Notes under the pieces: model-generated
Database searches by the model: none
What the model was told of the DNA's origin: nothing
Seen by the model: only the letters and a program-made list of their open reading frames with translations
Translations under genes and position numbers: made by a program
NCBI GenBank assembly: GCA_963851005.1
Contig: CAWKNI010000008.1
Coordinates: 155,199-219,198, forward strand
DNA length: 64,000 nucleotides
Direction of reading: 5' to 3'
Source of the DNA: an uncultured delta proteobacterium
GTDB taxonomy: Bacteria > Desulfobacterota > Syntrophia > Syntrophales > Smithellaceae
In this document: piece after piece, positions 5,664 through 34,065 of the stretch
Layout of the letters: each line of letters starts with the position of its first letter
How positions within the stretch are numbered: the first letter of the stretch is position 1

Positions 5664-8186
5664 ATGATCCAGCAGCCACCTAAATATTGGGGTGTTCCCC
5701 AATCTGATTTGTTGACTCAGCTTAATGCAAAGATGGAAGGATTAAGCGTTGAGGAAGCAAAACAACGACTGATACAGTATGGTGCAAACCTTCTGAAGCC
5801 AGCGAAAAGTTCAGACACGCTGGCTCTGCTCATTTCCCAATTCAAAAGTCCTATTATCCTGACCTTGATTTTTGCGGCGGGGCTTTCTGCTTTTCTTCAT
5901 GACCCGGCAGACGCCATTATTATTATTACAATCGTTTTAATCAGCGGCCTTCTGGGATTCTGGCAGGAAAAGGGCGCTGTTGATGCTCTGGAAAAGATGC
6001 TGGCGATAGTCAAGATCAAGACTACTGTACTGCGAAACAGCAGCCAGCAAGACATTGCGCTGGAAGATGTTGTTCCGGGTGACGTCGTTATATTGAATGC
6101 CGGAGATGCGATTCCCGCCGACAGCCTGATTCTGGAATCCAGGGATCTCTTCGTGGATGAGGCAACCCTGACAGGTGAAAGCTTCCCTGTCGAAAAAAAT
6201 GCCGGTCTTCTACCCACGGAAACACCTCTTGCCAAACGCACCAACAGTCTTTTTATGGGAACACATGTTATCAGCGGCACAGCCACGGCTGTTGTGATTT
6301 TCACGGGGAAGCAGGCGGAGTTCGGCAAAATCTCCGAGAAGTTGAAACTGAGACCTCAGGAGACCGAGTTTGAGCATGGCATCCGGAAGTTTGGTTATTT
6401 ACTGCTTGAAGTAACTTTGTTGCTTGTCATTGCCGTTTTTGCCATAAATGTCTTTTTTCACCGGCCTGTTCTCGAATCCTTCCTTTTTTCTCTGGCCCTC
6501 GCTGTCGGACTGACGCCGCAGTTGCTGCCGGCCATTATCAGCATCAACCTGGCCCATGGCGCTAAAATAATGGCTCAGCAAAAGGTCATTGTAAAGCGGC
6601 TAGCCTCCATAGAAAACTTCGGGAGCATGAACGTTCTATGTTCAGATAAAACGGGAACTTTAACTGACGGAACGGTGCGCCTGCATTCGGCAATAGGCTT
6701 CGACGGAAATCCCAGCGATCGGGTTTTCTTGCATGCCTATCTGAATTCTTTCTATGAAAAAGGTTTTTCCAATCCTATCGATGAAGCGATCCGTTCTTAT
6801 AAGCAGCAGGATATTTCCGGTTATGAAAAAGTTGATGAGGTCCCCTATGATTTTATCCGCAAGAGATTGAGTATTCTGATCAAAAAGGATGGCCGGTATT
6901 TCATGGTTACGAAAGGCGCACTCTCGAATGTGCTTGCTGTCTGTCCTTTTGTGGAAAACAAGGCCGGGGACAAGATAGATACAAACACAGCGGGGCAAAT
7001 GATCCAGCAGAAGTTCGAGGAACTCAGTAATCAGGGCTTCCGCGTACTTGGCGTTGCCATGCGGGATATGGGAACAGAGTCTGTCATCAATAAAGATTCC
7101 GAACGGGATATGACATTCCTCGGTTTCCTGCTTTTCTTCGATCCGCCTAAAAAAGGAGTTTTGGAAACGATTGGCCGTCTCAAGCAACTTGGCGTTTCCC
7201 TGAAAGTTATCACCGGAGATAACCGCCTCGTAGCCGCCAAGATAAGTCAGGATGTGGGAATGCCCGATGCCAAAATCCTCACCGGCACCGAACTGCGTGA
7301 AATAAGTGATGCCGCTCTATTGCAAAAAGTAACCCAAACGGACATCTTCGCGGAAGTAGAGCCCAATCAAAAAGAACGCATTATTATTGCGCTCAGGAAG
7401 GCCGGATATGTTGTGGGTTATATCGGAGACGGCATCAATGACGTTTCCGCGCTCCATGCCTCGGATGTAAGTATTTCTGTTGATACGGCGGTGGATGTGG
7501 CCAAAGAATCGGCCGATATCGTGCTTCTGGAAAAGAATTTGGAGGTGCTCGTGCAAGGCGTCCATCAAGGAAGGACTACGCTGGCCAATACTATGAAGTA
7601 CGTTTTTATGGCTACCAGCGCTAATTTCGGAAACATGTTCAGCATGGCTGGCGCTTCTCTGTTTCTGTCTTTTCTTCCTCTGCTACCCAAACAAATTCTG
7701 TTGACGAACCTGATGACTGATTTTCCGGAAATGACCATTGCCACGGATCGGACAGACGTCGAAATGGTAAATCAACCGAAACGGTGGAATATTTCCTTTA
7801 TTAAAAAATTCATGATCACTTTTGGCTTGATCAGTTCGGTTTTTGATTATCTAACTTTTGGTGTTTTGTTGTTCATCCTTCACGCTTCACCGGAACAATT
7901 CCGAACAGGATGGTTCGTGGAATCTGTTATTTCCGCTTCAATTATAGTGCTTGTCATTCGCAGCAGAAAACCATTCTTTAGAAGCCGGCCGGGAAAATAT
8001 TTATTCATCGCCACAATTGCTGTTGTTGTTGCAACGCTCATCCTCCCTTTTACACCTATAGGGAAGATATTTGATTTTGTACACCTGCCCATGTCGTTTC
8101 TTATGATACTGGCAATCATTATGGCGCTTTATATTTTAATGGCGGAACTGGCAAAAAAAATATTCTATCAAAAGATAAACTATTGA
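5664..8186 (+). CDS. mgtA: Mg2+-type P-type ATPase (MgtA-like)
   Basis: 840 aa; TGES, DKTGTLT phosphorylation site, GDGINDVSAL hinge, 10-TM layout and N-terminal YGANLL motif resembling MgtA-class pumps. Confidence 0.75.
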   Translation: MIQQPPKYWGVPQSDLLTQLNAKMEGLSVEEAKQRLIQYGANLLKPAKSSDTLALLISQFKSPIILTLIFAAGLSAFLHDPADAIIIITIVLISGLLGFWQEKGAVDALEKMLAIVKIKTTVLRNSSQQDIALEDVVPGDVVILNAGDAIPADSLILESRDLFVDEATLTGESFPVEKNAGLLPTETPLAKRTNSLFMGTHVISGTATAVVIFTGKQAEFGKISEKLKLRPQETEFEHGIRKFGYLLLEVTLLLVIAVFAINVFFHRPVLESFLFSLALAVGLTPQLLPAIISINLAHGAKIMAQQKVIVKRLASIENFGSMNVLCSDKTGTLTDGTVRLHSAIGFDGNPSDRVFLHAYLNSFYEKGFSNPIDEAIRSYKQQDISGYEKVDEVPYDFIRKRLSILIKKDGRYFMVTKGALSNVLAVCPFVENKAGDKIDTNTAGQMIQQKFEELSNQGFRVLGVAMRDMGTESVINKDSERDMTFLGFLLFFDPPKKGVLETIGRLKQLGVSLKVITGDNRLVAAKISQDVGMPDAKILTGTELREISDAALLQKVTQTDIFAEVEPNQKERIIIALRKAGYVVGYIGDGINDVSALHASDVSISVDTAVDVAKESADIVLLEKNLEVLVQGVHQGRTTLANTMKYVFMATSANFGNMFSMAGASLFLSFLPLLPKQILLTNLMTDFPEMTIATDRTDVEMVNQPKRWNISFIKKFMITFGLISSVFDYLTFGVLLFILHASPEQFRTGWFVESVISASIIVLVIRSRKPFFRSRPGKYLFIATIAVVVATLILPFTPIGKIFDFVHLPMSFLMILAIIMALYILMAELAKKIFYQKINY

Positions 8187-15735: not shown

Positions 15736-16602
15736 TTAGTCTAAAATTTTATCGGAATCATCCACGCGGAAATTGACCAGCACGGGCTTATCTTCAATGC
15801 TCATGCCGGCGGCCTGACCGAACATTTCCTCACATCCCTTCGCCACTTTTTTGTGGAACAGATAAAGCGGAATGTCCACCGGGCAGGCGCGTGAACATTC
15901 GCCGCAATCAATACATCGGCCGGCCAGATGATGGAATCTCGTTAGATGATACATCAGATTGCCGTGTGATTCCGGCGATTTTTCTCCCCACTTGGGCTTG
16001 TTCTGATCGATAAAGCAGGGATCGCAGTAACACATCGGACAAGCCTTGCGGCACGCGTAACAACGGATGCAGCGATCCAATTCCTTTTTCCAGAAAGCCC
16101 AGCGCGCGTCCTTATCCATCGCTTCATATTCGGCAAGAACATCATAAGGCGAAACCACGGGCTGACCGTGCACTTCCTCACCCAGCAGGATATCGTAAAT
16201 CACCGGATTATAAATCCCGCCGGTGGTTTTGCTGTCGATAATTTCGCCTGTTTTGAAATTCTTCATTCCATAAACCGGAATGCCCAAAATGACCAGGTCA
16301 TCACGTTTCACCTTCTCTTCCTGAATCAGCTGAATCACCGCGCGGCTGTCAGCAGCTTTCACCGCAATGGCAATTTTTGTTCCGCGCGGATAACGAACCA
16401 GATAACGCGCCATGTTGGCCGTGCAGTATTCGTTAAAGACAATATTCTCTATGTCGGAAGTTTTTCTGGCAACATAGGGCATGGGGTGTTTTTCATCATA
16501 GCCTTTACAGTAGGCCATTACAACGCTTACCTTGCCTTCCTCCAGTAACTTCCCGGCTTCAGTCTTTAATTTATCTTCAATTTGCTTAAAATTGATGCTC
16601 AT
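15736..16602 (-). CDS. FlxC-like 2x[4Fe-4S] protein
   Basis: 288 aa; CIRCYACRKACPMCYC and CIDCGECSRACPV motifs; 4-nt overlap with the upstream mvhD-like gene; paralog of 28104-29114. Confidence 0.75.
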   Translation of the reverse strand: MSINFKQIEDKLKTEAGKLLEEGKVSVVMAYCKGYDEKHPMPYVARKTSDIENIVFNEYCTANMARYLVRYPRGTKIAIAVKAADSRAVIQLIQEEKVKRDDLVILGIPVYGMKNFKTGEIIDSKTTGGIYNPVIYDILLGEEVHGQPVVSPYDVLAEYEAMDKDARWAFWKKELDRCIRCYACRKACPMCYCDPCFIDQNKPKWGEKSPESHGNLMYHLTRFHHLAGRCIDCGECSRACPVDIPLYLFHKKVAKGCEEMFGQAAGMSIEDKPVLVNFRVDDSDKILD

Positions 16603-17042
16603 ATCTTCTCCAGCGTGGGCTGTTGTTCTATCTTAAACTTGTTTTGCGACCCCAGTTTTTTCACCTGCCCGGTGAACTCGGTCACAACCTCGGCAAATTT
16701 GTTGCCTTCAGATGCGGAAATCCATTCGACCCGGAACCGTCCCGGTTCCATGCCGGCAAACTCCAGTATTTTTTTGGTCACAGCCAGCCTTCTGCGCGCG
16801 TATAGATTCCCTGTGTTGTAATGGCAATCTCCCGGATGACAACCGCCGATCAGCACGCCGTCCGCTCCCAGTTGAAAAGCGCGAAAGATAAATGAAGGAT
16901 TGATGCGGCTGGAGCACATTACGCGGACAACCCGCACATTTTGCGGATATTGAAGCCTTGTCGTTCCGGCCAGATCCGCTCCGGTATAAGTACACCAGTT
17001 GCAGGCTATGCCCAGTATTTTCGGTTCAAATGACATAAACAT
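16599..17042 (-). CDS. mvhD: MvhD/FlxD-like protein (methyl-viologen-reducing hydrogenase delta subunit family), Cys form
   Basis: 147 aa; ACNWCTYTGADLAG...GADGVLIGGCHPGDCHY signature. Confidence 0.85.
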   Translation of the reverse strand: MFMSFEPKILGIACNWCTYTGADLAGTTRLQYPQNVRVVRVMCSSRINPSFIFRAFQLGADGVLIGGCHPGDCHYNTGNLYARRRLAVTKKILEFAGMEPGRFRVEWISASEGNKFAEVVTEFTGQVKKLGSQNKFKIEQQPTLEKI

Positions 17043-20806: not shown

Positions 20807-22082
20807 TTATAAACAGGAGCTCTCGCATAAATATTTCAATTGCCGATAAATCACTTCCATTGCAAGAATATCGTCCCTGTTGTATGCGATGATTTTCTTC
20901 TTCAACATTTCATCTTTTGTTTTGAGCCATTTGCCATACCATGCTTCGCAATTCATGCCTCCGGCATCTTCGGCTTGCCAATGGAAACCTAGAACCGGAG
21001 CCACCTCCTTGATGCTATAGCTTCTTGTCGGAAAAGCGAAGTGGGTGCTCGTCCAATTACACTGGTCTGTTAGTCCGGTCATTAAAACATTGTAGGCTTT
21101 TTCGTTTCCGCCGAATCTTTCCAAACATTCCCTAGCCCGCGCTTGTTCAAAAAATGTCCAGCAGTAAATAACCGGTCCCTTATCATGGGCGATGAAATCC
21201 AAAAACTCATGCCATACCATTTCGGCACCCTCTAGTGAATCGGCAAAGAAAAACTTTTCTTCCCGCTTATCTTCAAATAACCGAATAAGTCCATGAAGAA
21301 AAACAGTGTTCCCGTAGGTTTCCACATCATAGAAGATGATGGGGACATTTTCAGAGAATTTTGGCTTTTTGATAACGATGGGTTTGCCTTGAACTCTGGC
21401 TTGAGCATGACGCCACAGCTTATCGGTGGATTTTTCAGACATATTTGCCATAGCAGCGATGCGTTTCGGATCGGATTGAGCCAAAGCGGTTATTGTTTTT
21501 ATCCCAATAGCTTGAAGTTTTTGCGTCGAGCTCTTGCCGCCACCAGGAAGTAAAGAAATACTCCCTTTCTTGTTCCAAGTATCTTTGCAGAAATCCAACC
21601 ACTGGCATAAAGAGCACGCACTGCACCAAATAGGGGCGGTCTCCAGTTGTTTGGAACGAATCTGTTCCATCTGGATTTTAACGAGTTCGAAAGCTGGAAG
21701 ATGGTCGGCAATTTCAAACTCTTCGATTTCATTTGTATTCAGCCATACCCCTCCATTAGTACATGGTTTACCAATGACTTCTCCCAGCATGATGCTGTAT
21801 GCCACAACCTGAAGGATGTCCTTTTTCTGAACCTGTTTGTGAGCCTTGATCTCAATGGGAATGTAAGAATAGAGTCCGAATTTAGATCGTTCAGACACCT
21901 TTTTCAGAAGGTCGGGAATACCAACCAGTTTTACATCCATCAGTACGCCGCCATGAATCCACGGGACACCTTTTTCCATGAGTTTTACAGTGATTAAATA
22001 ACCATTTTTCAGATCCTTTTGATCCCATACGGGTTCTTCGACCCCTTTCAAGGTTGCGACCACCTGTCGCTCGAATTCCAGT
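20807..22082 (-). pseudogene. 5'-truncated RecB-like nuclease of the TM0106 type (PD-(D/E)xK + Cas4-like Cys cluster + RNase H-like exonuclease domain)
   Basis: GIPDLL...YIPIEIKAHK nuclease motifs, CSACSLCQWLDFC, then IIFYDVETYG exonuclease-like domain. The apparent start (GTG 22108) and first 9 codons are IS3 terminal sequence. No N-terminus is found beyond the IS. Confidence 0.7.
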
Positions 22083-22107
22083 GGGACTACCCCCAGCAAT
22101 ATTGCCA

Positions 22108-22971
22108 CTATGAATTAGAGTTTTCCAGCAAAATATCTTCTTTTTGTGCAAATTCCTTCGGCGTGAGAAAATCCAGCGTGCTGTGAGGCCGGTTTTCATT
22201 GTAATCTATCCGCCAGTCTTCAATTACTTTTCTTGCATGTTCAATGCTTCTAAACCAGTTTACGTTCAGACACTCTTCTCTGAACCTCGCATTAAAACTT
22301 TCCATAAATGCATTATCAACCGGTTTCCCAGGTCTGATAAAGTGCAGTTTCACTTTCTGACGGTAGGCCCACTCATCCATTGCGTTGCTGATAAACTCGG
22401 GACCATTATCTACTATAATATTCTCCGGCAGCCCATGCATCAATGATGCTTCGCTCAACAATGAAGTCACTCGCCTGCCTCCTATGGATCGGTCCACCTC
22501 TATTCTGTGGCATTCCTTTGTAAAAGTATCAATGATCGGCAGTATTCTTATTTTCATCCCGCTGCCCAGTGAATCATGCAGGAAATCCAGTCCCCATAAC
22601 TCATTCCGCTTCTTAGCTCTTGGTATCGCTACCCTTGCATATGATGCTCTCTTCTTCCGCCTGCGTATGGTTAATGACAACCTTTCTTCTTTGTAAATCC
22701 GCTCTGTACGTTTATGATTTATTACTAATCCTTCCCGTTTTGCTATGGCATGAAACATCTGGCAACCGGATCGTCGCCTCTGCTCAGCAAGTTCCCTTAA
22801 TCGCTTTCTCAACGCAGCGTCTTTGTCCGCTTTTGCCTCATACCGCAACGTGTCTCTGCTTAATCCTATCAACCTGCATGATCGCCTTATGCTCAACCCA
22901 AAGCTCTTTATTATAAATTCGACAGCTTCCCTACGAACTCTGGGCTTAAAACTTTTTTTCGATGACCGCCT
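22108..22971 (-). CDS. IS3-family transposase OrfB, copy 2
   Basis: Identical protein to 4166-4954. Confidence 0.85.
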   Translation of the reverse strand, partial: RRSSKKSFKPRVRREAVEFIIKSFGLSIRRSCRLIGLSRDTLRYEAKADKDAALRKRLRELAEQRRRSGCQMFHAIAKREGLVINHKRTERIYKEERLSLTIRRRKKRASYARVAIPRAKKRNELWGLDFLHDSLGSGMKIRILPIIDTFTKECHRIEVDRSIGGRRVTSLLSEASLMHGLPENIIVDNGPEFISNAMDEWAYRQKVKLHFIRPGKPVDNAFMESFNARFREECLNVNWFRSIEHARKVIEDWRIDYNENRPHSTLDFLTPKEFAQKEDILLENSNS

Positions 22972-24664: not shown

Positions 24665-24788
24665 TACCATTTCGATTTCAAAGGATAACGCGGCGGTAAG
24701 GAGGAGGCTCCGCAGGCGTATTGCTAATACGTTGAGGAAGCCAACGACGCTGCCAACAAAGTTAGCCGAAGAAAGCGAATTGGTATTA
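24665..24788. repeat. B-type long-hairpin repeat (variant of A), copy B1
   Basis: taccatttcgatttcaaagg...ggctccgcaggcgtattgctaatacgttgaggaagccaacgacgctgccaacaaagttagcc...gcgaattggta; overlaps the stop codon of 24786-25625. Confidence 0.85.
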
Positions 24789-25625
24789 GTATTCCGGTGT
24801 CAACTTATCCAATTCCGCCAGAGAAAAGACGGGGCCGTCTTTGCACACGTATTTACTGCCTACATTGCAGCGTCCGCATTTGCCGATGCCGCATTTCATC
24901 CGCATTTCCAGAGAAGTGATAATATTTTCCTTGGAAAAACCCAAATCGAAAAATACCGGCAGGGTAAAACGGATCATTATGGGAGGCCCGCAGATCACAG
25001 CCACAGCGTTTTCCTTGCTGGGGGCGACTTCCTTGCATACGGCGGGCACAAAACCTTCTCTGCCTTTCCAAGTGGCATCACCCTTATCCACGGTTACATT
25101 CAAATTTAAATCGGTTCTCTTGCCCCATTCTATTAATTCATCCTTGTAAAGCAACAAGCCTGGATTTCGCGCGCCGTAAATAACGGTGATATTGCCGAAG
25201 CGTTTGCGGTTGTCGCCGTAAATCATATAATTTATCAGAGACCGCAGGGTCGTGAAAGCGAATCCGCCGCCTACAATAACGATATTCTTTCCCGCCAGAA
25301 ATTCCAGCGGCCAGGAATTGCCCAATGGACCACGGATACCCATTAGGGTGCCTTCTTCCATTTCATGAAGCGCTGAGGTTACCACGCCGGCTTTCTGTAC
25401 GGTAAATTCCACATAACCTTTCTGTGTCGGAGATGAGGCAATGCCGATGGGCGATTCGCCTTTGCCGTAAATGGAAAGTTCGCCGAACTGTCCGGGAATG
25501 TAGCTGTATTTTGCTTCGTCTTCCGGATGAACGAACTTAAAACGAAAAGTTTTGATGTCTTTGGTGTCGACCTCGGTAATGATTTTATCCACCACAACAG
25601 GATAAGGTATATACGGGTTTTGCAT
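24786..25625 (-). CDS. FlxA-like FAD/NAD(P)-binding [2Fe-2S] oxidoreductase, paralog 2
   Basis: 279 aa; long identical runs with 13696-14556 (GREGFVPAVCK, VAVICGPPIMI, LEMRMKCGIGKCGRCNVG). Confidence 0.8.
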   Translation of the reverse strand: MQNPYIPYPVVVDKIITEVDTKDIKTFRFKFVHPEDEAKYSYIPGQFGELSIYGKGESPIGIASSPTQKGYVEFTVQKAGVVTSALHEMEEGTLMGIRGPLGNSWPLEFLAGKNIVIVGGGFAFTTLRSLINYMIYGDNRKRFGNITVIYGARNPGLLLYKDELIEWGKRTDLNLNVTVDKGDATWKGREGFVPAVCKEVAPSKENAVAVICGPPIMIRFTLPVFFDLGFSKENIITSLEMRMKCGIGKCGRCNVGSKYVCKDGPVFSLAELDKLTPEY

Positions 25626-25639
25626 TACTGACTCCCTGA

Positions 25640-26662
25640 TTATAATTTTGAAATATCTTCAACTATTTTTCGAATGTCAATATTCACGGGACAAGACATG
25701 ACGCATCTGCCGCAACCGACACAGGCAATCGAGTTGAACATGTCCACATAATACTTGAACTTGTGCATTGTGCGCTGACGCCATCTTTCCTTTTGCGAAG
25801 AGCGCGGATTGTGACCGGATGTTTCCTTGGTAAATATCGGGAACATACAGGAATCCCACGATCGGATGCGCACACCGTCGCTGCCTTTCACTTCGTCACT
25901 GATATCGAAACAATGACAGGTGGGGCATAAATAGGTACAGGTGCCGCAAGCCAGACATTTGCCGTGAATCGTGTTCCAGAAGGGATTGTCGAAATTCTTA
26001 TCCAGAATCGGTTTGACTTCATGGGCGGGAATTTTCGACTTAATTGCCGCTTTGGCTTTGGCCGCTATTTCAGATTTCTTGGTATCGGCGGCGGCATCCG
26101 CTTTGGCATCGCCAAAATACTTGGTCAGTTTTTCTCCCTTGGAAGTAATAAACTCAGCCAGATAGTCTGAACCGATATCTGTCAGGAGAATGTCCGCGCC
26201 TTCGGAAGAAACAGGTTCCCCGTCAACCGATGTGCAAAAGCAACTCGTATAAGGAGGCTTAACGCAGGCCAGAGAAATAACCGTTGTTTTCTCTCTTTTG
26301 GCTATATAGTAACCGTCCTTGTATTTTTCCTGGTCAAAAAGCTTATCCAGCAGGGCAAAACTATGAGCGTCACAGGGACGCACACCGAACAATACCGATT
26401 CATCCGCTTTGTTTTCGTCCGCTGAAAAGACCATTCCCTTTTCCGTGCGGGTAAATTTCATCATAGCTTCCGTGTGCGGAAAGAAAACATTTTTCGGCGC
26501 GTTCTTCGAATTCAAATAAGCAAAGAACGGCTCGGCGCCTTTTTGCAGAGGTTCAAACAGAATATTATCTTCTTTTTTTACCGGCGCCCAAACGAGTAAA
26601 TCATCGGCCATTTTCTTGGCAATGCCCGCTAGTGCATCTTTTTTTATTAAACGTTTTTCCAT
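25640..26662 (-). CDS. FlxB-like 2x[4Fe-4S] protein, paralog 2
   Basis: 340 aa; CLACGTCTYLCPTCHCFD and CVGCGRCVMSCPVNI. Confidence 0.8.
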   Translation of the reverse strand: MEKRLIKKDALAGIAKKMADDLLVWAPVKKEDNILFEPLQKGAEPFFAYLNSKNAPKNVFFPHTEAMMKFTRTEKGMVFSADENKADESVLFGVRPCDAHSFALLDKLFDQEKYKDGYYIAKREKTTVISLACVKPPYTSCFCTSVDGEPVSSEGADILLTDIGSDYLAEFITSKGEKLTKYFGDAKADAAADTKKSEIAAKAKAAIKSKIPAHEVKPILDKNFDNPFWNTIHGKCLACGTCTYLCPTCHCFDISDEVKGSDGVRIRSWDSCMFPIFTKETSGHNPRSSQKERWRQRTMHKFKYYVDMFNSIACVGCGRCVMSCPVNIDIRKIVEDISKL

Positions 26663-26681
26663 AATTTTCCCTTACAATTTA

Positions 26682-27530
26682 TTAAATCAGCCCCAATTGT
26701 TTCAGCAGAGGCTGCGGATCAAACATGTGTGTTTTAAAGGTTTCTTTTGATCCAGGCAGACCCATTGCCAGAGCAATCAATTCCGTAAAATAAAAAATCG
26801 GCAGTTTTAATCCGCTGCTGGGACGCATATCCAGGTTGGCCATGCAAAGAGGACAGGCTGTTACGACACAGTTGGCTCCGGCCTCTTTGGCCGCATTCAT
26901 AAGTTTGTCGCACATCTCCACAACAATGGCGGTTTTGCTTATCGACAGAGAACCGCCGCAGCAATCTGTCTTGTACGACCAGTTTTTTACATCAGCGCCG
27001 ATCGAATTCAGAATTTTGTCCATCATAAAAGGATTTTCGTAATTTTCAAACTCGCAAATTTCCGGCGGTCTGAGCAACAGGCAGCCGTAGTAAGAAACCG
27101 GCTTCAACCCGGTCAGGGGCTTCACGATTTTTGCCGTCAGTGTGTCAATGCCAATATCATTAAAAATGACATCAATGGGATTGCGGATGGCGATGCCGCC
27201 CTGATATTTGGCTCCCACCACGCCTTCAATTTTTGTTTTTAATTCCTTATCGTCCTTTAAATGATATTCGGCCATTTTGAAACGGTTGAAACAGGCCGCG
27301 CAGGGAACCATCACATCCAGCGCGTTTTTTTCCGCGGCAATCAGGTTGCGCGCAGACAGGGCGATGGATAAATCAAAATTCGTGCTGTGCGCGGATGACG
27401 CTCCGCAGCAAGACCAATCTTCAACTTCTTTCAGTTCGATGCCCAGAGCGTGACTTACCGACTTCATGGACTGATCATATTCTTTTCCCGTCGCGTGCAG
27501 CGAGCAGCCCGGATAGTATGAAACTTTCAA
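26682..27530 (-). CDS. hdrB: Heterodisulfide reductase subunit B (two CCG domains)
   Basis: 282 aa; YYPGCSL...WSCCGAS...PCAACF and YYGCLL...DCCGGS...ACPLC. Confidence 0.85.
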   Translation of the reverse strand: MKVSYYPGCSLHATGKEYDQSMKSVSHALGIELKEVEDWSCCGASSAHSTNFDLSIALSARNLIAAEKNALDVMVPCAACFNRFKMAEYHLKDDKELKTKIEGVVGAKYQGGIAIRNPIDVIFNDIGIDTLTAKIVKPLTGLKPVSYYGCLLLRPPEICEFENYENPFMMDKILNSIGADVKNWSYKTDCCGGSLSISKTAIVVEMCDKLMNAAKEAGANCVVTACPLCMANLDMRPSSGLKLPIFYFTELIALAMGLPGSKETFKTHMFDPQPLLKQLGLI

Positions 27531-27551
27531 CTCTAGCCTCCTTAGCCTTCT

Positions 27552-28079
27552 TTATGAGTGCTTTGTTTTCTCAAAAATATTTTTTACCGACTTCATGTCC
27601 TTCGTCCGCGGAGACAGAAGCGACAGCTTTCCTTTCAGGAACATACCCGGGGCCAAGGCAACATCCGAGAACAGATCTCCCGATGTGAGTTTATACTGGG
27701 CCATCATCATGGGTTCATTGATACGGCCGCCACGCTTAATTCCGGCAAGGAATGCTTCATGAAATTTCAAAATATTCTTCTCCCGGGCGCCGACGCCGGA
27801 TTCAATGGCCATCTGCCTTAACGCATCCATCATGCGCGCGATGTCCACCTGATTCGGACAGCGGGTAATGCAGGTTTCGCAGGACAGGCAAATCCAGATG
27901 GTCGAACTGTTGAGAACCTTATCACGTTGACCGTTCTGTATCATTTTAATAACCTTGTTGGGGTTATATTCCATGTGGGAAGCCACGGGGCAACCGGCAG
28001 TGCATTTACGGCAATGATAGCATCTTTGCAGCGGCACACCGTCAATCTTTTTGTTTACTTCTTCCAGAAAAGTTTCCAT
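27552..28079 (-). CDS. hdrC: Heterodisulfide reductase subunit C
   Basis: 175 aa; CYHCRKCTAGCPV and CLSCETCITRCP ferredoxin motifs, located directly upstream of hdrB. Confidence 0.85.
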   Translation of the reverse strand: METFLEEVNKKIDGVPLQRCYHCRKCTAGCPVASHMEYNPNKVIKMIQNGQRDKVLNSSTIWICLSCETCITRCPNQVDIARMMDALRQMAIESGVGAREKNILKFHEAFLAGIKRGGRINEPMMMAQYKLTSGDLFSDVALAPGMFLKGKLSLLSPRTKDMKSVKNIFEKTKHS

Positions 28080-28103
28080 GTAAACTCCATTATTTCGAAC
28101 TAA

Positions 28104-29114
28104 TTATGGGTTGTAGATAAAGTCTCCTTTATCGTGATGTTCATTGTACTTGCCAAGCGGCGGCATATCTTCCATAGAAGAACCGGCGCGGTTGCCGAAA
28201 AACTCCCAGCAATCCTTGTCGATCTTCTTGAGGAACTTGCGTAAATCAACGCCCATCGGACAAACAGCGACACAAGAACCGCAATCAACGCAACGGCCAA
28301 CCATATGATAGAGACGCATCAGTTGAAATACCTGGGTATCGGACTTGTCCTCGCCGATACCCACCCACTGCGGCTGACTCTGTTCCACAAAACAGGTCGG
28401 ACAATAACAGGAAGGACAGGCCTGACGGCAAGCGTTGCAACGCATGCACTTTTCCATTTCCTTGATGAAATACGCCCAGCGTTCTTCAATCGGTTTGGCT
28501 TCGAATTCTTTTACTTCGTTATATTCCGCGTCGGGATTCATCGCCGGAGCGTTTTGTCCGATCATGACATCGGAAATTATGGGATTATTGAACCGGCAGG
28601 TGAGGCAACTGTCCGCCAGCGCATCTTTGAGAGCAACGGTTTTATCGCCATCGGATGTTTTCATCTTAATCTGGCCGCCGTCCAGCGACCCGTCCACGAC
28701 GTCCGCGCCGCCTATAGCCACTTTCAAACCTTTGCCGTCCACATAACCATCGCAGGGAACACCGATAATCACCAATTCATCCCGACCATATTGTCTTTCC
28801 TGCAGATGAATAATCAGCGAACGGGTTGTACAGCCTCGGGCGACAACACCGATAATTTTTTTCTTCCGGTCTTCCGGCTTGACCCGCTTTTGTGAATTTT
28901 TGTGCGCGGTGATCAAATCGTGAACATACTTGGCCAGATTCTGCGTGCAGAAATTATTCCAGACAAACTTGTCGGCTTCCTCGGGCGCCGTGATAAAGCA
29001 GGGCGTTGCCGTCAACGGTAGCGTGCCTTTTTCATAACCGACGATCACGTCGGCCTTCTTTTCCAAAAGCAGTCTTTTTGCTTCTTCCCGTAATTTTGTT
29101 TCAATGTTTTCCAC
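28104..29114 (-). CDS. FlxC-like 2x[4Fe-4S] protein, paralog 2 (longer)
   Basis: 336 aa; CMRCNACRQACPSCYCPTC and CVDCGSCVAVCPMG. Confidence 0.75.
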   Translation of the reverse strand: MENIETKLREEAKRLLLEKKADVIVGYEKGTLPLTATPCFITAPEEADKFVWNNFCTQNLAKYVHDLITAHKNSQKRVKPEDRKKKIIGVVARGCTTRSLIIHLQERQYGRDELVIIGVPCDGYVDGKGLKVAIGGADVVDGSLDGGQIKMKTSDGDKTVALKDALADSCLTCRFNNPIISDVMIGQNAPAMNPDAEYNEVKEFEAKPIEERWAYFIKEMEKCMRCNACRQACPSCYCPTCFVEQSQPQWVGIGEDKSDTQVFQLMRLYHMVGRCVDCGSCVAVCPMGVDLRKFLKKIDKDCWEFFGNRAGSSMEDMPPLGKYNEHHDKGDFIYNP

Positions 29115-29152: not shown

Positions 29153-29593
29153 TTAACCAATCTTCTTAATCATCTTGTTGGCCGGTCCCAGTGCCTTTAT
29201 TTTCTCTGTAGCGCCTTTGATGACCTGTGCCCATCTGTCGCCTTCGGACGCGGAAACCCATGTAAATATGGTTCTGTCGCCTTCCACACCAATGTAGTTC
29301 AGGAAACTTTTTAACGTCGCAAACTTGCGCCGTGCCACGAGATTTCCTGAGATATAGTGGCATTCACCCGGGTGTCAACCCGAAACCAGAACGCCATCGG
29401 CTCCGGTCTGCAGGGCTTTCACTATATAAAAAGGATTTATTCTTCCCGTGCAGGGAACGCGGATGATGCGGACATTTGTCGGATACTGAATTCTGCTGAT
29501 ACCCGCCAGATCGGCTCCTGCGTAAGTACACCAGTTGCAGACAATGGCAACGAATTTCGGTACCCATTCTTTGTTTGCTAATTTTTCAGCCAT
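29153..29593 (-). CDS. mvhD: MvhD/FlxD-like protein with in-frame TGA (candidate selenocysteine at residue 73)
   Basis: Track ORFs 29375-29593 and 29153-29338 are in the same frame. Reading through TGA 29375-29377 gives [17 protein letters not shown], collinear with [17 protein letters not shown] of paralog 16599-17042. Confidence 0.75.
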
Positions 29594-29637
29594 ATATTCT
29601 CCTTACAGCGGTAATGCGGCTTTATCAGCCGTTTACC

Positions 29638-32600
29638 TTAGTTTAAATTAAATATCTGTGCCAGCACTTCTTCGTTATTGAATCCGTTGAGATCAACGGC
29701 GTTCATACGGCAGGACGCCGTGCATACGCCGCAACCCTTGCATAAAACTGTATTAACTTCAGCGCAGCCTTCCGCAACATTGACCTGAATTGCACTGTAG
29801 GGACAATTGATTTCGCAAAGACCGCAGGCCGCACATCTATCCTTATTGACATAAGCTGTTTTGCCTTCCGCCTCGATGAAATCAAGACACAGAACCATGA
29901 CGGCACGTGAAACGGCGGCGTTAGCCTGAGTTATTGATTCGTCACTGAACTTGGGCGAATGCGACATGCCGCACATAAAGACACCATCGGTCTGGAAATC
30001 AACCGGGCGCAGTTTAACGTGCGCTTCAAGGAAGAAGCCGTCCTGATTGGTAGGTACTTTCAGCATCTGGCCGATGGCTGCGTTTTCCGGATTCGGCACA
30101 ACACCAATGCTCAGAGCCACTATATCAGCAGGAAGATTTACCTTCTCATTCAGAATCGGGTCAAACACTTTGACTTCCACCTTATCTCCGGCTGCAACAA
30201 CTTCCGGTTTACGATCTTCTTCATAAGAGATAAATTTGATATTCATTTCACGCGCTTTCTTATAATAATCTTCTTTGAAAGCAAATGTCCGGATATCGCG
30301 ATAAAGGATGGTTATGTCGCGGGACGGATCGGCGGCCTTGAGTTCCAGAGCATTCTTAACCGCTTCGGAGCAGCAGTAACGGCTGCAGTAAGGCCTTTCT
30401 TTGTCGCGGCTGCCCACACACTGAATCATGACTACGTTTTTCACAGAAGCCAGTTTGGGATCTTTTTCGTAAATCAGAGTTTCAAGTTCTCTTTGTGTCT
30501 TCACACTGGCGTTTTGACCGTAGAGATATTCTTTGGGCTTGTTTTCAGAAGCGCCGGTAGCCACAATCACTATACCGTGTTCAAATACTTTCTCGCCATC
30601 CTTGACCTTGACTGTAGTCTTGTAATTTCCGATGAAACCTTCGATCTTATCGATCTTGGCGCCGGTGGCAACCGTAATCAAAGGATTTTTGTAAACTTTT
30701 TCCAGGAGGCCTTTTAAATGAGCTTGCGCATCAAGACCTTCGAGTGTTTTATAGAGATGATTGTAATTGCCGCCGAGACGGTCTTCTTTTTCCACGATGA
30801 ATGAAGCAAAACCCTGATCGGCCAGCGACAGAGCCGCGGTTATGCCTGCCAGTCCGCCGCCGATAATCAAAGCCTGATGATTGACGGAAAGCTGACCCGG
30901 TTTCAAAGGTTTCAAATATTGAGCTTTGGCTACAGCCATGCGCAGCAAATCTTTCGCTTTTTCGGTGGCTGCTTCCGGTTCGTGCATATGTACCCAGGAG
31001 TTCTGGTCGCGAATGTTGGCCATCTCGAACAGATATCTGTTCAAACCGGCCTTTTCGCAGTTTTCCTGGAACAGGCCTTCATGCGTGCGGGGCGAGCAGG
31101 ATGCCACAACAACTCTCGTGAGATCTTTTTCCTTGATAACTTCGGCCATCTTCACCGCCGTATCCTGCGAGCAGGTAAAGAGGTTATCCGCCGTATAAAC
31201 AACAGTGGGCAGTGTCGCGGCATAATCACGGACTGCCGGAACGTCAACAACACCGCCGATATTGATACCGCAGTGGCAGACAAACACACCGGTGCGCACG
31301 CCCGTGCCGCGCATATCTTTTTCTTCCGGATTATCCACCGGAGTAATCATCGTTCCGCGTCTTGAGGCCAGTAACCCTTCCGCGCAGGCGGCCGCGGCGC
31401 TTGCTTCCATAACTGTTTCGGGAATATCTTTCGGTCCGCCGAAAGCTCCGCAGACAAACACGCCGGGGCGCGAGGTCTGAACCGGATTTTCCAGTTTTGT
31501 TTTGCAGAAACCATGATCTTCAAGCTCAACACCAAGACTGGACGCCAGCTTTTTGGCTTCCTTGGGCGGCATCAAACCGACAGAAAGAACCACCATGTCG
31601 AATTCTTCATCCGTGAAGGTTCCATCCTGATTAACATATTTAATCAGCAGATTATTGGTCTGCTGCATTTCTTTAATGACTGAAGGCATTGAACGGATAT
31701 AACGAATGCCGTATTCTTCCTTGGCGCGGTTGACGAACCTGTCGAAATCCTTGCCGTGAGCGCGAATATCCATATAGAAAATTGTCGGCTCCAGACCCTT
31801 GGCGTGCTCCTTCCCGATAATTGCTTCTTTGGTTGCGTACATGCAGCAAACCGAAGAGCACCAGCTGTTGTCGCAGGAAGTGTCGCGCGAACCTACGCAT
31901 TGAATAAAGGCGACTTTCTTCGGCTCCTTGCCGTCGGATATTCTCTGAACATGGCCGAAGAAAGGACCGGATGCAGAAAGGATTCTTTCAAACTGAATCG
32001 CCGAAACCACGTTCTTGTATATGCCGTAACCGAATTCGCCGCGCAGACGCGCGTCAAATATTTCAAAACCGGGCGAAGCGATGACCGCGCCGACTTCGAT
32101 GGTTTCTTCTTCGATCGTCATATCATGGTCAATTGCCTTGGCAATACAGGCATCAACGCACTGATAACATTCGGAACAGATACCACAATTTAAACAGCGC
32201 AGCGCTTCCGCTTTGGCCTGCGCTTCATCAAAACCCAAGCCCACTTCCTTGAAGTTGGTGCGACGTTCTTCCGGCTTCATGAAGGGATATTTTTCACGCG
32301 CGACCTTAGCAACATTGGAAACATCACCCTTATCCGCCAGGTCTTTGGTCCAGTCTTTTTCGCGACCCGCCTTGATGTCTTCGCCCATGAGATAACGGTT
32401 GATGGACTTGGCCGCTTCCTTGCCGGCGAAAACAGCTTTGACGACCGTCTGGGGACCGGTAGCTACGTCACCACCGGTGAATATGCCGGCGACATTCGTC
32501 GCGTAAGTGACCTTATCGAAATCCACATTATTCCATTTATTGATGGATACGCCGCTTTCTTTGGTAATGAAAGATAAATCGGCTTCCTGACCGATGGCGG

Positions 32601-34065
32601 GAACGATAGAATCGCATTCAACTATAAATTCAGAACCCTTAATTTCGATGGGCCGGCGGCGTCCGCTCGCGTCCGGCTCGCCCAGTTCCATGCGTGTGCA
32701 CTCGATGCCGGTAACTTTTCCGTCCTTGCCCACGACGCGTTTCGGGGCAACGAGGAATTTCATTTCGATTCCTTCTTCAATGGCCTCTTCGATTTCTTCG
32801 GGTGCTGCGGGCATTTCCGCGCGGGTCCGGCGATAGAGAATAAAAACTTCCCTCGAACCGGTTCGGACAGCCGTGCGCACAGCGTCCATAGCCACATTGC
32901 CGCCGCCGACAACAGCAACCTTGTCGCCCAGGGAAACTTTCTTGCCCAGATTGATCTGCATCAGATAATCGACACCGTGAATCACGCCCTGCATATCCTC
33001 ACCGGGAATGTTGAGCTTGCTGCTCTTCATCGTGCCGCAGCCGATGAAAATCGCACTGTAATCTTTCTTAAGCTGATCAAAGGAAATATCTTTGCCGATT
33101 TTTGTATTGAGATGAATCTTCACGCCCAGGTCTTCCATGACCTTGATTTCCGCATTGAGGACTTTTTTGGGAAGACGGTATTCGGGAATGCCAACAGCCA
33201 TCCAGCCGCCGGCCACAGGCAGCGCTTCAAAAACTTCCACTTCATAGCCTTCGATGGCCAGATAATAAGCGCAGGTTAGTCCGGAAGGACCGGCGCCGAC
33301 AACGGCGACTTTCTTGCCCTTGCTTTCCTTCTTTTCAGGCAGATAACGGGTATCGCTGTTTAAATCCAGATCAGCGACAAACTGCTTCAGATGCATAATA
33401 TCGATGGGATCATCAACCTTGCCCCGCATACAGGCCGTCTCGCAGGGATGGTTGCAAACGCGTCCGCAGACGATGGGGAAAGGGTTATCCTGTTTGATGA
33501 GTTTGAGAGCTTCTTTGAATTTGCCCTGGCCGATCAACGCCACGTAGCCTTGAACGCTGATGTGAGTCGGACAATTGGCTTTACAGGGAGACGTCCCCAG
33601 TTTATCGATAGCAAAGCCGCTGGGAATGGCTTGTGGAAAGTGCCGGTAGATCGCTTTTCTTTCACTTAAATTTCCGTTGAAACCGGCCGGAACGGAAACC
33701 GGACAGACATTGGCGCAATCACCGCAGCCGGTGCATTTGTTCAGATTGACAAATCGCGGAGCGTTTGTTAATTTAACTTTGAATTTTCCAGGCTCACCTT
33801 CGACCGACTCGACAGTCCGCCGGGTTTTTATTTCCACGTTAGGATGACGCCCTACTTCAACCAGTTTTGGCGACAAGATACAGGCGGAACAGTCATTCGT
33901 GGGAAAAGTCTTGTCCAGTTGCGCCATGACGCCGCCGATACTGATCCCGTTTTCGACCAAATATACTTTCATTCCGGAATTGGCTAAATCGAGAGACGCC
34001 TGAATGCCGGCGATTCCCGCGCCAACTACCATTACCGCACCAACTTTTTCGTTATCTTTTAGCAC
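29638..34065 (-). CDS. Giant HdrA-like fusion (HdrL-type): HdrA module with inserted GltD/NfnB-like NAD(P)H module, followed by a second complete HdrA module
   Basis: 1475 aa. Module 1 has VVGAGIAGIQASLDLA..CSACILSPK. The insert has GRVCNHPCETACMRG and VVGAGPSGLTCAYYLA..GIPEYRLP. Module 1 then resumes with CVGSRD..CSSVCCMY. Module 2 has GVFVCHCGINI..IIGGGLAGITAALSLA..CVGSRD..CSRYCC..2x[4Fe-4S]. Confidence 0.85.
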   Translation of the reverse strand: MLKDNEKVGAVMVVGAGIAGIQASLDLANSGMKVYLVENGISIGGVMAQLDKTFPTNDCSACILSPKLVEVGRHPNVEIKTRRTVESVEGEPGKFKVKLTNAPRFVNLNKCTGCGDCANVCPVSVPAGFNGNLSERKAIYRHFPQAIPSGFAIDKLGTSPCKANCPTHISVQGYVALIGQGKFKEALKLIKQDNPFPIVCGRVCNHPCETACMRGKVDDPIDIMHLKQFVADLDLNSDTRYLPEKKESKGKKVAVVGAGPSGLTCAYYLAIEGYEVEVFEALPVAGGWMAVGIPEYRLPKKVLNAEIKVMEDLGVKIHLNTKIGKDISFDQLKKDYSAIFIGCGTMKSSKLNIPGEDMQGVIHGVDYLMQINLGKKVSLGDKVAVVGGGNVAMDAVRTAVRTGSREVFILYRRTRAEMPAAPEEIEEAIEEGIEMKFLVAPKRVVGKDGKVTGIECTRMELGEPDASGRRRPIEIKGSEFIVECDSIVPAIGQEADLSFITKESGVSINKWNNVDFDKVTYATNVAGIFTGGDVATGPQTVVKAVFAGKEAAKSINRYLMGEDIKAGREKDWTKDLADKGDVSNVAKVAREKYPFMKPEERRTNFKEVGLGFDEAQAKAEALRCLNCGICSECYQCVDACIAKAIDHDMTIEEETIEVGAVIASPGFEIFDARLRGEFGYGIYKNVVSAIQFERILSASGPFFGHVQRISDGKEPKKVAFIQCVGSRDTSCDNSWCSSVCCMYATKEAIIGKEHAKGLEPTIFYMDIRAHGKDFDRFVNRAKEEYGIRYIRSMPSVIKEMQQTNNLLIKYVNQDGTFTDEEFDMVVLSVGLMPPKEAKKLASSLGVELEDHGFCKTKLENPVQTSRPGVFVCGAFGGPKDIPETVMEASAAAACAEGLLASRRGTMITPVDNPEEKDMRGTGVRTGVFVCHCGINIGGVVDVPAVRDYAATLPTVVYTADNLFTCSQDTAVKMAEVIKEKDLTRVVVASCSPRTHEGLFQENCEKAGLNRYLFEMANIRDQNSWVHMHEPEAATEKAKDLLRMAVAKAQYLKPLKPGQLSVNHQALIIGGGLAGITAALSLADQGFASFIVEKEDRLGGNYNHLYKTLEGLDAQAHLKGLLEKVYKNPLITVATGAKIDKIEGFIGNYKTTVKVKDGEKVFEHGIVIVATGASENKPKEYLYGQNASVKTQRELETLIYEKDPKLASVKNVVMIQCVGSRDKERPYCSRYCCSEAVKNALELKAADPSRDITILYRDIRTFAFKEDYYKKAREMNIKFISYEEDRKPEVVAAGDKVEVKVFDPILNEKVNLPADIVALSIGVVPNPENAAIGQMLKVPTNQDGFFLEAHVKLRPVDFQTDGVFMCGMSHSPKFSDESITQANAAVSRAVMVLCLDFIEAEGKTAYVNKDRCAACGLCEINCPYSAIQVNVAEGCAEVNTVLCKGCGVCTASCRMNAVDLNGFNNEEVLAQIFNLN

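Follow-up and report, generated by a model that had tools for sequence, protein, structure and literature searches.

The window analysed here, a stretch of 64,000 nucleotides considered over its full length, carries on its minus strand an mvhD/flxD-type gene that the ORF list renders as two pieces, 29375-29593 (72 aa) and 29153-29338 (61 aa), and the question raised by this locus is whether the TGA between them ends a broken gene or encodes selenocysteine (Sec). Both pieces lie in the same frame, separated by the TGA (29375-29377) and 12 sense codons. The minus strand from 29593 to 29153 holds this single internal TGA, and translation through it yields a product of 146 aa, in agreement with the initial annotation, which had described one gene split in a single frame. 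The features of the gene are as follows.

29153-29593, minus strand: mvhD/flxD-type gene for a [2Fe-2S] adaptor subunit, 146 codons plus TAA, with the proposed Sec at codon 73
29375-29377, minus strand: UGA codon 73, very probably read as Sec, aligned with Cys67 in both the window paralog and M. marburgensis MvhD
29599-29604, minus strand: Shine-Dalgarno sequence AAGGAG, 5 nt 5' of the ATG at 29593-29591, as read from the sequence

The read-through product forms a complete FlpD domain (Pfam PF02662, E 1e-50, residues 15-136), with a score of 171.3 bits against a curated cut-off of 22.3 and coverage of profile positions 2-123 of 123. Residues 8-139 match the solved MvhD chains 7BKB_F (E 5e-47) and 5ODC_D (E 7e-45), and also align with 9SW2_D. 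The five conserved Cys positions of MvhD/FlpD proteins, carried by the motifs CxxC, VxC, GC-H and GxC-H, correspond to C19, C22, C48, U73 and C78, all of which align with Cys in these three chains; the fourth is the one encoded by UGA. The TGA had been described as collinear with a Cys of the paralog encoded at 16599-17042, and this is borne out by a gapless alignment at 55% identity, in which Cys67 of the paralog stands opposite the TGA. Alignment with MvhD homologs accordingly places Cys at the TGA column both in the paralog and in the PDB homologs.

Of the 150 best matches among 339 genomes of the order, 82 contain a single in-frame TGA, and the TGA column is identical in all 36 orthologous TGA forms that were read. 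A six-frame search of 61 relatives found orthologs with exactly one in-frame TGA in 14 species of the genus, sharing 91-99% identity. Where relatives of the locus are named, they are MAGs of Smithella, Smithellaceae and Syntrophaceae. In each of the 24 named TGA loci, hdrL lies upstream of mvhD and the gene order is hdrL-mvhD-flxC. Among the 36 Sec forms, dN/dS is 0.06 before the TGA (codons 4-72) and 0.10 after it (codons 74-144), and no further stop is present; the part downstream of the TGA is thus a protein sequence under selection. In homologs, the residue aligned with UGA73 is always Cys. These comparative data, together with the Sec machinery and the RNA-level constraint described below, argue that mvhD 29153-29593 is very probably a genuine selenoprotein gene in which UGA73 is recoded as Sec, as the initial annotation had suggested on account of the TGA at a conserved Cys.

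Could the TGA instead be a nonsense mutation, a sequencing or assembly error or a plain terminator, leaving a 72-aa fragment or no product at all? A single third-base change is enough to turn TGC or TGT into TGA, and close Cys forms exist with up to 95% protein identity. However, the same TGA recurs in at least 36 independently assembled species genomes as well as in the 82 best matches mentioned above, the half of the gene 3' of it is under strong purifying selection, and the nucleotides that follow it are more conserved, not less. Furthermore, only three of the five conserved Cys would be present in the 72-aa product, and a shared systematic error is implausible across long-read and short-read MAGs originating from many studies. 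This explanation is effectively refuted by the comparative data and retains a very low probability, so that the earlier opinion that the split ORFs are unlikely to be a pseudogene holds, the TGA being retained by dozens of species of the Smithella group. Still more improbable, to the point of being negligible, is a genome-wide reassignment by which this organism would read TGA as Trp or Gly. Such reassignments occur in some uncultured bacteria, but TGA terminates nine of the 31 long ORFs of the window, and is therefore not a general sense codon here. In-frame TGAs were seen solely at the canonical Sec/Cys positions of SelD, FdhA and MvhD, and the Cys invariably aligned with the codon in homologs does not fit Trp or Gly. 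A scan of the window for other TGA-split genes gave out-of-frame noise only; in the same scan, a stretch of 56 codons 5' of yidC (45479) was considered as a Sec extension and rejected.

With regard to the Sec machinery, the genome (3.4 Mb in 9 contigs, 98% complete) encodes a tRNA-Sec at C1:65849-65946 (73.8 bits, anticodon UCA, discriminator G), and selA, selB and selD score 631, 370 and 378 bits, respectively, all above curated cut-offs. A search for selA, selB, selC and selD has therefore found all four genes. In selD itself (C3:46146), an in-frame TGA occupies the canonical position (QSAG-U-ACKIG), and 8 nt further on lies a hairpin of 8 bp with a CGGGC loop. The formate dehydrogenase alpha subunit gene fdhA (C3:83881-85893) has the classic CARL-U-HS site, with a 7-bp hairpin and a GGUCU loop 11 nt after the UGA. 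The presence of two genes with their own in-frame TGA and textbook hairpins indicates that the Sec system is in use.

A recoded UGA in bacteria is expected to be accompanied by an RNA element within the coding sequence, and the region 3' of UGA73 was compared between 36 Sec forms and 15 Cys forms of the gene. Three features are of concern here.

29300-29374, minus strand: candidate SECIS region, codons 74-98, with extra synonymous constraint in Sec forms only
29333-29362, minus strand: hairpin H1, separated from the UGA by a 12-nt spacer, compared in the 36 Sec and 15 Cys forms
29315-29332, minus strand: hairpin H2, abutting H1, CGNCGCA-AGUU-UGCGRCG with a tetraloop containing G-U

Synonymous diversity is 0.36 in Sec forms and 0.41 in Cys forms over codons 7-72, and 0.43 and 0.48, respectively, over codons 99-143. 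Over codons 74-98 it is 0.18 in the Sec forms and 0.56 in the Cys forms, the synonymous sites of this region being about twice as conserved as those of the remaining gene in TGA forms only. The six 25-codon windows with the lowest synonymous diversity all start at codons 72-77 (permutation p < 1e-5). A hairpin UGCCAC/GUGGCA had been noticed previously in this place; it is found at 29362-29357 / 29338-29333, begins at the 13th nucleotide after the UGA, and corresponds to H1, thus forming part of the region that is under RNA-level constraint in Sec forms only. Its position is confirmed; the fold energy speaks neither for nor against it, a single-sequence fold of the SECIS region being no better than shuffled sequences (z about +0.4). 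An Rfam scan of the gene returned chance snoRNA matches and none to any SECIS family.

In relatives, H1 consists of an 8-bp stem, UGCCACUA/UNNGUGGCN, closing a 14-nt loop in which GGAAA is invariant. The stem of the window copy consists of 6 bp together with a U-C mismatch and a single A-U pair. At 29344, its Leu85 codon is CUC, which is unique among the 36 Sec forms, the others having CUG, UUA, UUG, CUA or AUG, all of which pair; CUC breaks the seventh pair of H1. The Sec forms have 99% of the H1 cells paired, the Cys forms 78%. The changes among Sec forms are one-sided only (U:G to U:A) and the stems are otherwise invariant, so that two-sided compensatory covariation is absent. The H1 loop of 14-18 nt differs from the loops that follow the UGA of fdhA and selD in this genome, which are the compact GGUCU and CGGGC, respectively. 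As for H2, its stem pairs are invariant in the 36 Sec forms except for a central 1x1 mismatch (87% paired overall), and 58% paired in Cys forms. The compact loop of H2 with its G-U resembles SelB-binding loops, but lies about 50 nt from the UGA, past the usual range. Since H1 is a closed helix, however, the base of H2 would be drawn near the 12-nt spacer. The minimal SECIS element of E. coli fdhF needs about 11 nt, and H1 has the right spacing from the UGA for a bacterial SECIS. Overall, conservation supports a candidate SECIS after UGA73.

Two other pairings were noticed in this part of the gene. A long-range helix H3, pairing GGAAAU with GUUUCC (29342-29349 and 29300-29307), is paired at 96% in Sec forms and 81% in Cys forms, and competes with the H1 loop. 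An upstream hairpin CGGGU/ACCCG, with the UGA in its loop, was rejected as a Sec-specific element, as it results from Gly/Pro codons and occurs equally in Cys forms.

In the proposed mechanism, Sec-tRNASec would be made by SerRS, SelA and SelD, all of them encoded by the genome, and a complex of SelB-GTP and Sec-tRNASec would bind the mRNA just 3' of UGA73 during translation. The bound element would be H1, with its 12-nt spacer from the UGA, or the adjoining H2, or both, and SelB would then deliver Sec at the UGA.

Which of the Cys of an MvhD protein is replaced is of interest, since the Sec is not in the CxxC motif. Both Cys of this motif (C19 and C22) are intact, and Sec occurs 51 residues later, within G-U-H-P-G-E-C. 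According to the alignment, residue 73 corresponds to Cys67 of M. marburgensis MvhD, directly before His68, and in that protein His68 and Asp71 adjoin an unknown ligand held by a Cys pair of HdrA (PMC13580544). As for the explicit [2Fe-2S] ligands of MvhD, the open literature gave indirect statements only; it describes the second Cys of the MvhD CxxC as the single 'additional', non-ligand Cys. Five Cys being conserved and one of them being no ligand, residue 73 would by elimination be a ligand of the [2Fe-2S] cluster, as we infer from these sequence comparisons. If this is the case, the protein would contain a natural Se-ligated [2Fe-2S] centre at the entry to the bifurcating flavin, and such a centre, if true, would be a useful system for investigating the role of selenium in electron transfer. 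Three distant MvhD paralogs of the order, L051 (G047:C23), L052 (G059:C9) and L053 (G056:C19), with 41-44% identity, have a single in-frame TGA at CxxU (CQW-U, CEY/H-U). Compared with the G-U-H of mvhD, this indicates that the family uses two Sec sites, that is, two distinct Sec positions within one small Fe-S protein family. Archaeal VhuD has two Sec sites.

The gene belongs to an operon running from 34065 to 24786, all on the minus strand, with intergenic gaps of 14-44 nt (14-38 nt among the genes from 24786 to 29114). Besides mvhD, it comprises the following genes, as assigned from Pfam domains.

29638-34065, minus strand: hdrL (1475 aa), a fusion of two HdrA units into which a GltD/NfnB-like NAD(P)H module is inserted
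28104-29114, minus strand: FlxC-like protein
27552-28079, minus strand: HdrC
26682-27530, minus strand: HdrB
25640-26662, minus strand: FlxB-like protein
24786-25625, minus strand: FlxA-like protein

The hdrL gene ends 44 nt upstream of mvhD and is without in-frame TGA, and adjacency to an HdrA-type flavoprotein gene is kept in 71 of 78 related loci. HdrL is thus the presumed partner of MvhD 29153-29593. Co-transcribed with HdrL, MvhD would presumably dock on this large HdrA-type flavoprotein and act as a one-electron relay connecting the bifurcating FAD with the Flx-type NAD(P)H/Fe-S module, a proposal based on the role of MvhD in solved Hdr complexes. Both the partner and the direction of electron flow are presumptive. 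With regard to annotation, standard gene callers split or truncate mvhD in dozens of Smithella-group genomes, in which one selenoprotein annotation is due. Otherwise, the HdrL/Flx complex, thought to be important for syntrophic electron bifurcation/confurcation, is scored as incomplete.

A second cluster of this type is present in the window.

20571-11386: HdrCB-like protein, HdrA (649 aa), Cys-type FlxD, FlxC, FlxB, FlxA and aldehyde:ferredoxin oxidoreductase
16599-17042, minus strand: Cys-type FlxD paralog of this HdrA-FlxDCBA-AOR cluster, 55% identical to mvhD 29153-29593

Subunit identities between the two clusters range from 30% to 75%, the FlxD value being 55%. The clusters are old paralogs with different architecture, one having HdrL of 1475 aa and the other HdrA of 649 aa, and not isoenzymes. 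The earlier idea that the HdrL cluster represents the selenium-dependent version of a duplicated system is therefore not supported, and neither is the pairing of mvhD with the in-window paralog as a Sec/Cys couple, given their 55% identity and different partners. Between the hdr/flx clusters, at 20807-22896, the window contains an IS3-family transposase (rve domains) adjoining an ORF with a RecB-like RNase_H_2 fold.

The genome harbours five PF02662 genes, none of which is more than 55% identical to mvhD 29153-29593, and this implies that the in-window Cys paralog is not a functional back-up. A Sec/Cys isoenzyme pair of the Vhu/Vhc type was thus not found in this genome, which has no orphan close Cys copy. 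Many sister species do carry such a Cys copy, with 86-91% identity, besides the Sec gene in the hdrL operon. The six named examples of these orphan copies are beside neither hdrL nor flxC. At two loci, the neighbours are a radical-SAM protein and HGD-D in one case, and a chromate transporter and a porin in the other, that is, unrelated genes which are also unlike each other. In an approximate nucleotide tree of mvhD, based on a short alignment, the Sec clade encloses both the orphan Cys copies and a clade of Cys forms located in the operon; in the same approximate tree, deeper Syntrophales and outgroups are all Cys.

Over codons 74-92, the orphan Cys copy L038 (G011:C5) has retained H1 and nearly all of H2, and in the Cys-type mvhD of L043 (G046:C49) the H1 and H2 sequences are almost intact. 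These fossil SECIS elements in Cys forms point to recent Sec-to-Cys conversion. The mvhD case can be seen as a well-sampled example of frequent Cys-Sec-Cys switching, with fossil SECIS elements in Cys copies.

While the Sec reading of the UGA in the initial annotation stands, a tRNAReC-like gene that might insert Cys at this codon had been missed. This second tRNASec-like gene is located about 200 kb from the window, at C8:416648-416741 on the minus strand, and was detected by Rfam and ARAGORN with 47.4 bits. Its anticodon is UCA and its discriminator U; the D and T stems measure 6 bp and 4 bp, respectively, the variable arm is paired, and the acceptor stem consists of 8 bp with an A-C mismatch that is A-U in relatives. 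The published features of selC*/tRNAReC, namely, a length of at least 80 nt, 8/4 acceptor/T arms, anticodon UCA or GCA and discriminator U73 (PMC13582414, PMC7609411), are all found in it. Insertion of Cys by such a tRNA at UGA codons under the direction of a SECIS has been reported (PMC7609411, PMC13582414). A tRNAReC-like gene with the published features makes Cys at residue 73 under selenium shortage a live possibility. Among 25 genomes of the genus, 17 possess the gene, and its acceptor stem shows compensatory changes. It is flanked on one side by a TusA/DsrE fusion and a PF11823 Se/S-carrier, and on the other by a class-V aminotransferase of the cysteine desulfurase/selenocysteine lyase type.

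It may then be asked whether UGA73 is read mainly or conditionally as Cys by a SelB-delivered tRNA of the selC*/tRNAReC type, the gene yielding a Cys protein under scarcity of selenium and a Sec protein under sufficient supply. The UCA anticodon and discriminator U of the second tRNA, its conservation in the genus and its location among selenium- and sulfur-handling genes speak for this option, as does the lack in this genome of the orphan Cys copy that many sister species carry. Nevertheless, the full Sec pathway is encoded, and selD itself requires Sec or recoding. Neither selB* nor CysRS* was seen in the genome, in which no second SelB scores above the cut-off and the next-best SelB match covers the GTPase domain only and is of EF-Tu size. 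Moreover, the presence of the tRNA shows no anticorrelation with that of the orphan Cys copy across the genus. On balance, from what the genomes encode, we judge this decoding unlikely, and prefer the reading of UGA73 as Sec. A broader proposal, tentative and in our opinion only slightly less doubtful, would combine three elements, namely, Se at the cluster-ligating G-U-H site instead of CxxU, a UGA decoded as Sec or Cys depending on selenium supply via a tRNAReC-type tRNA, and orphan Cys spares in sister species. The tRNAReC-type tRNA would then be embedded in a selenium-handling operon, and sister species would rely on an orphan Cys spare for this one subunit, with the Sec gene as its origin.

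In two relatives, the tRNA and the orphan gene occur in the same stretch. In L160 (G024:C187), an orphan Cys mvhD (1644-2078) and a selC*-like tRNA(UCA, U73) at 2364-2457 are 290 bp apart. In L161 (G013:C82), a selC*-like tRNA(UCA, U73) at 1019-1112 and an orphan Cys mvhD at 5773-6204 are separated by 4.6 kb, and the stretch also contains an ABC transporter and a Cys-type HesB-like gene. These stretches could constitute a selenium-shortage module; at six other orphan Cys loci, no tRNA is present within 1.5 kb.

Comparison with known systems shows what is common and what is particular in this locus. Ramos et al. reportedly described in 2015 the FlxABCD-HdrABC NADH dehydrogenase/heterodisulfide reductase of Desulfovibrio. 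The window operon resembles that system in having a FlxA-like protein (FAD/NAD), FlxB/C-like Fe-S proteins, a FlxD that is an MvhD homolog, and homologs of HdrA, HdrB and HdrC, but differs from it by a 1475-aa HdrL in place of HdrA, another gene order and Sec in FlxD. Sec-MvhD/FrhD beside hdrA or hdrL is long known in Deltaproteobacteria including Syntrophus, the family having been known for about 20 years, and is among the commonest bacterial selenoprotein families. In 2006, 19 members were listed, four of them in Syntrophus aciditrophicus and eight in Syntrophobacter fumaroxidans (PMC1794560). The gene studied here shares with the Sec-FrhD/MvhD/VhuD family of Deltaproteobacteria, Clostridia and methanogens the PF02662 domain and an in-frame UGA at a conserved Cys, as well as a host from an anaerobic, selenoprotein-using deltaproteobacterial lineage. 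Desulfobacterium autotrophicum possesses four Sec-mvhD genes (mvhD1/2/3/5), each following hdrA or hdrL (PMC2702500), which is the arrangement seen in the window, mvhD being directly downstream of hdrL. HdrL1 and HdrL3 of D. autotrophicum contain Sec, whereas the HdrL of the window does not. A 2026 review gives CxxU as the motif of the PF02662 selenoprotein family (PMC13188914); in contrast, the window MvhD keeps both Cys of the CxxC and has its Sec at G-U-H-P-G-E-C. The mvhD case leaves the overall picture of bacterial selenoproteomes unchanged; the unusual place of the Sec adds a little to its interest, as do the orphan Cys spares and the tRNAReC-like gene.

In Methanococcus, the MvhD homolog VhuD/VhcD exists as Sec and Cys isoforms, the Cys form being used under selenium limitation (PMC13518236, PMC6019823). 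Sister species of the Smithella group are similar in carrying Sec and Cys copies with 86-91% identity, but their Cys copy is a lone gene in unrelated neighbourhoods and not part of a duplicated operon, and the genome studied here is without a close Cys copy. The location of the SECIS element is also different, being inside the coding sequence in bacteria and in the 3' UTR in the methanogen VhuD type. Another relevant case is BamF of the class II benzoyl-CoA reductase of Geobacter metallireducens, likewise an MvhD-type [2Fe-2S] adaptor with one Sec, which docks on the fused double-HdrA BamE and connects the bifurcating FAD with an NADH/Fd input module (bioRxiv 10.64898/2026.04.10.717634). In BamF, Sec19 replaces the non-ligand Cys of the CxxC, whereas the window MvhD keeps that Cys (C22) and has Sec at the inferred ligand position. 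BamF is more than 100 residues longer than the window MvhD, and its input module is BamGHI (HydBC-like), whereas that of the window is Flx-like.
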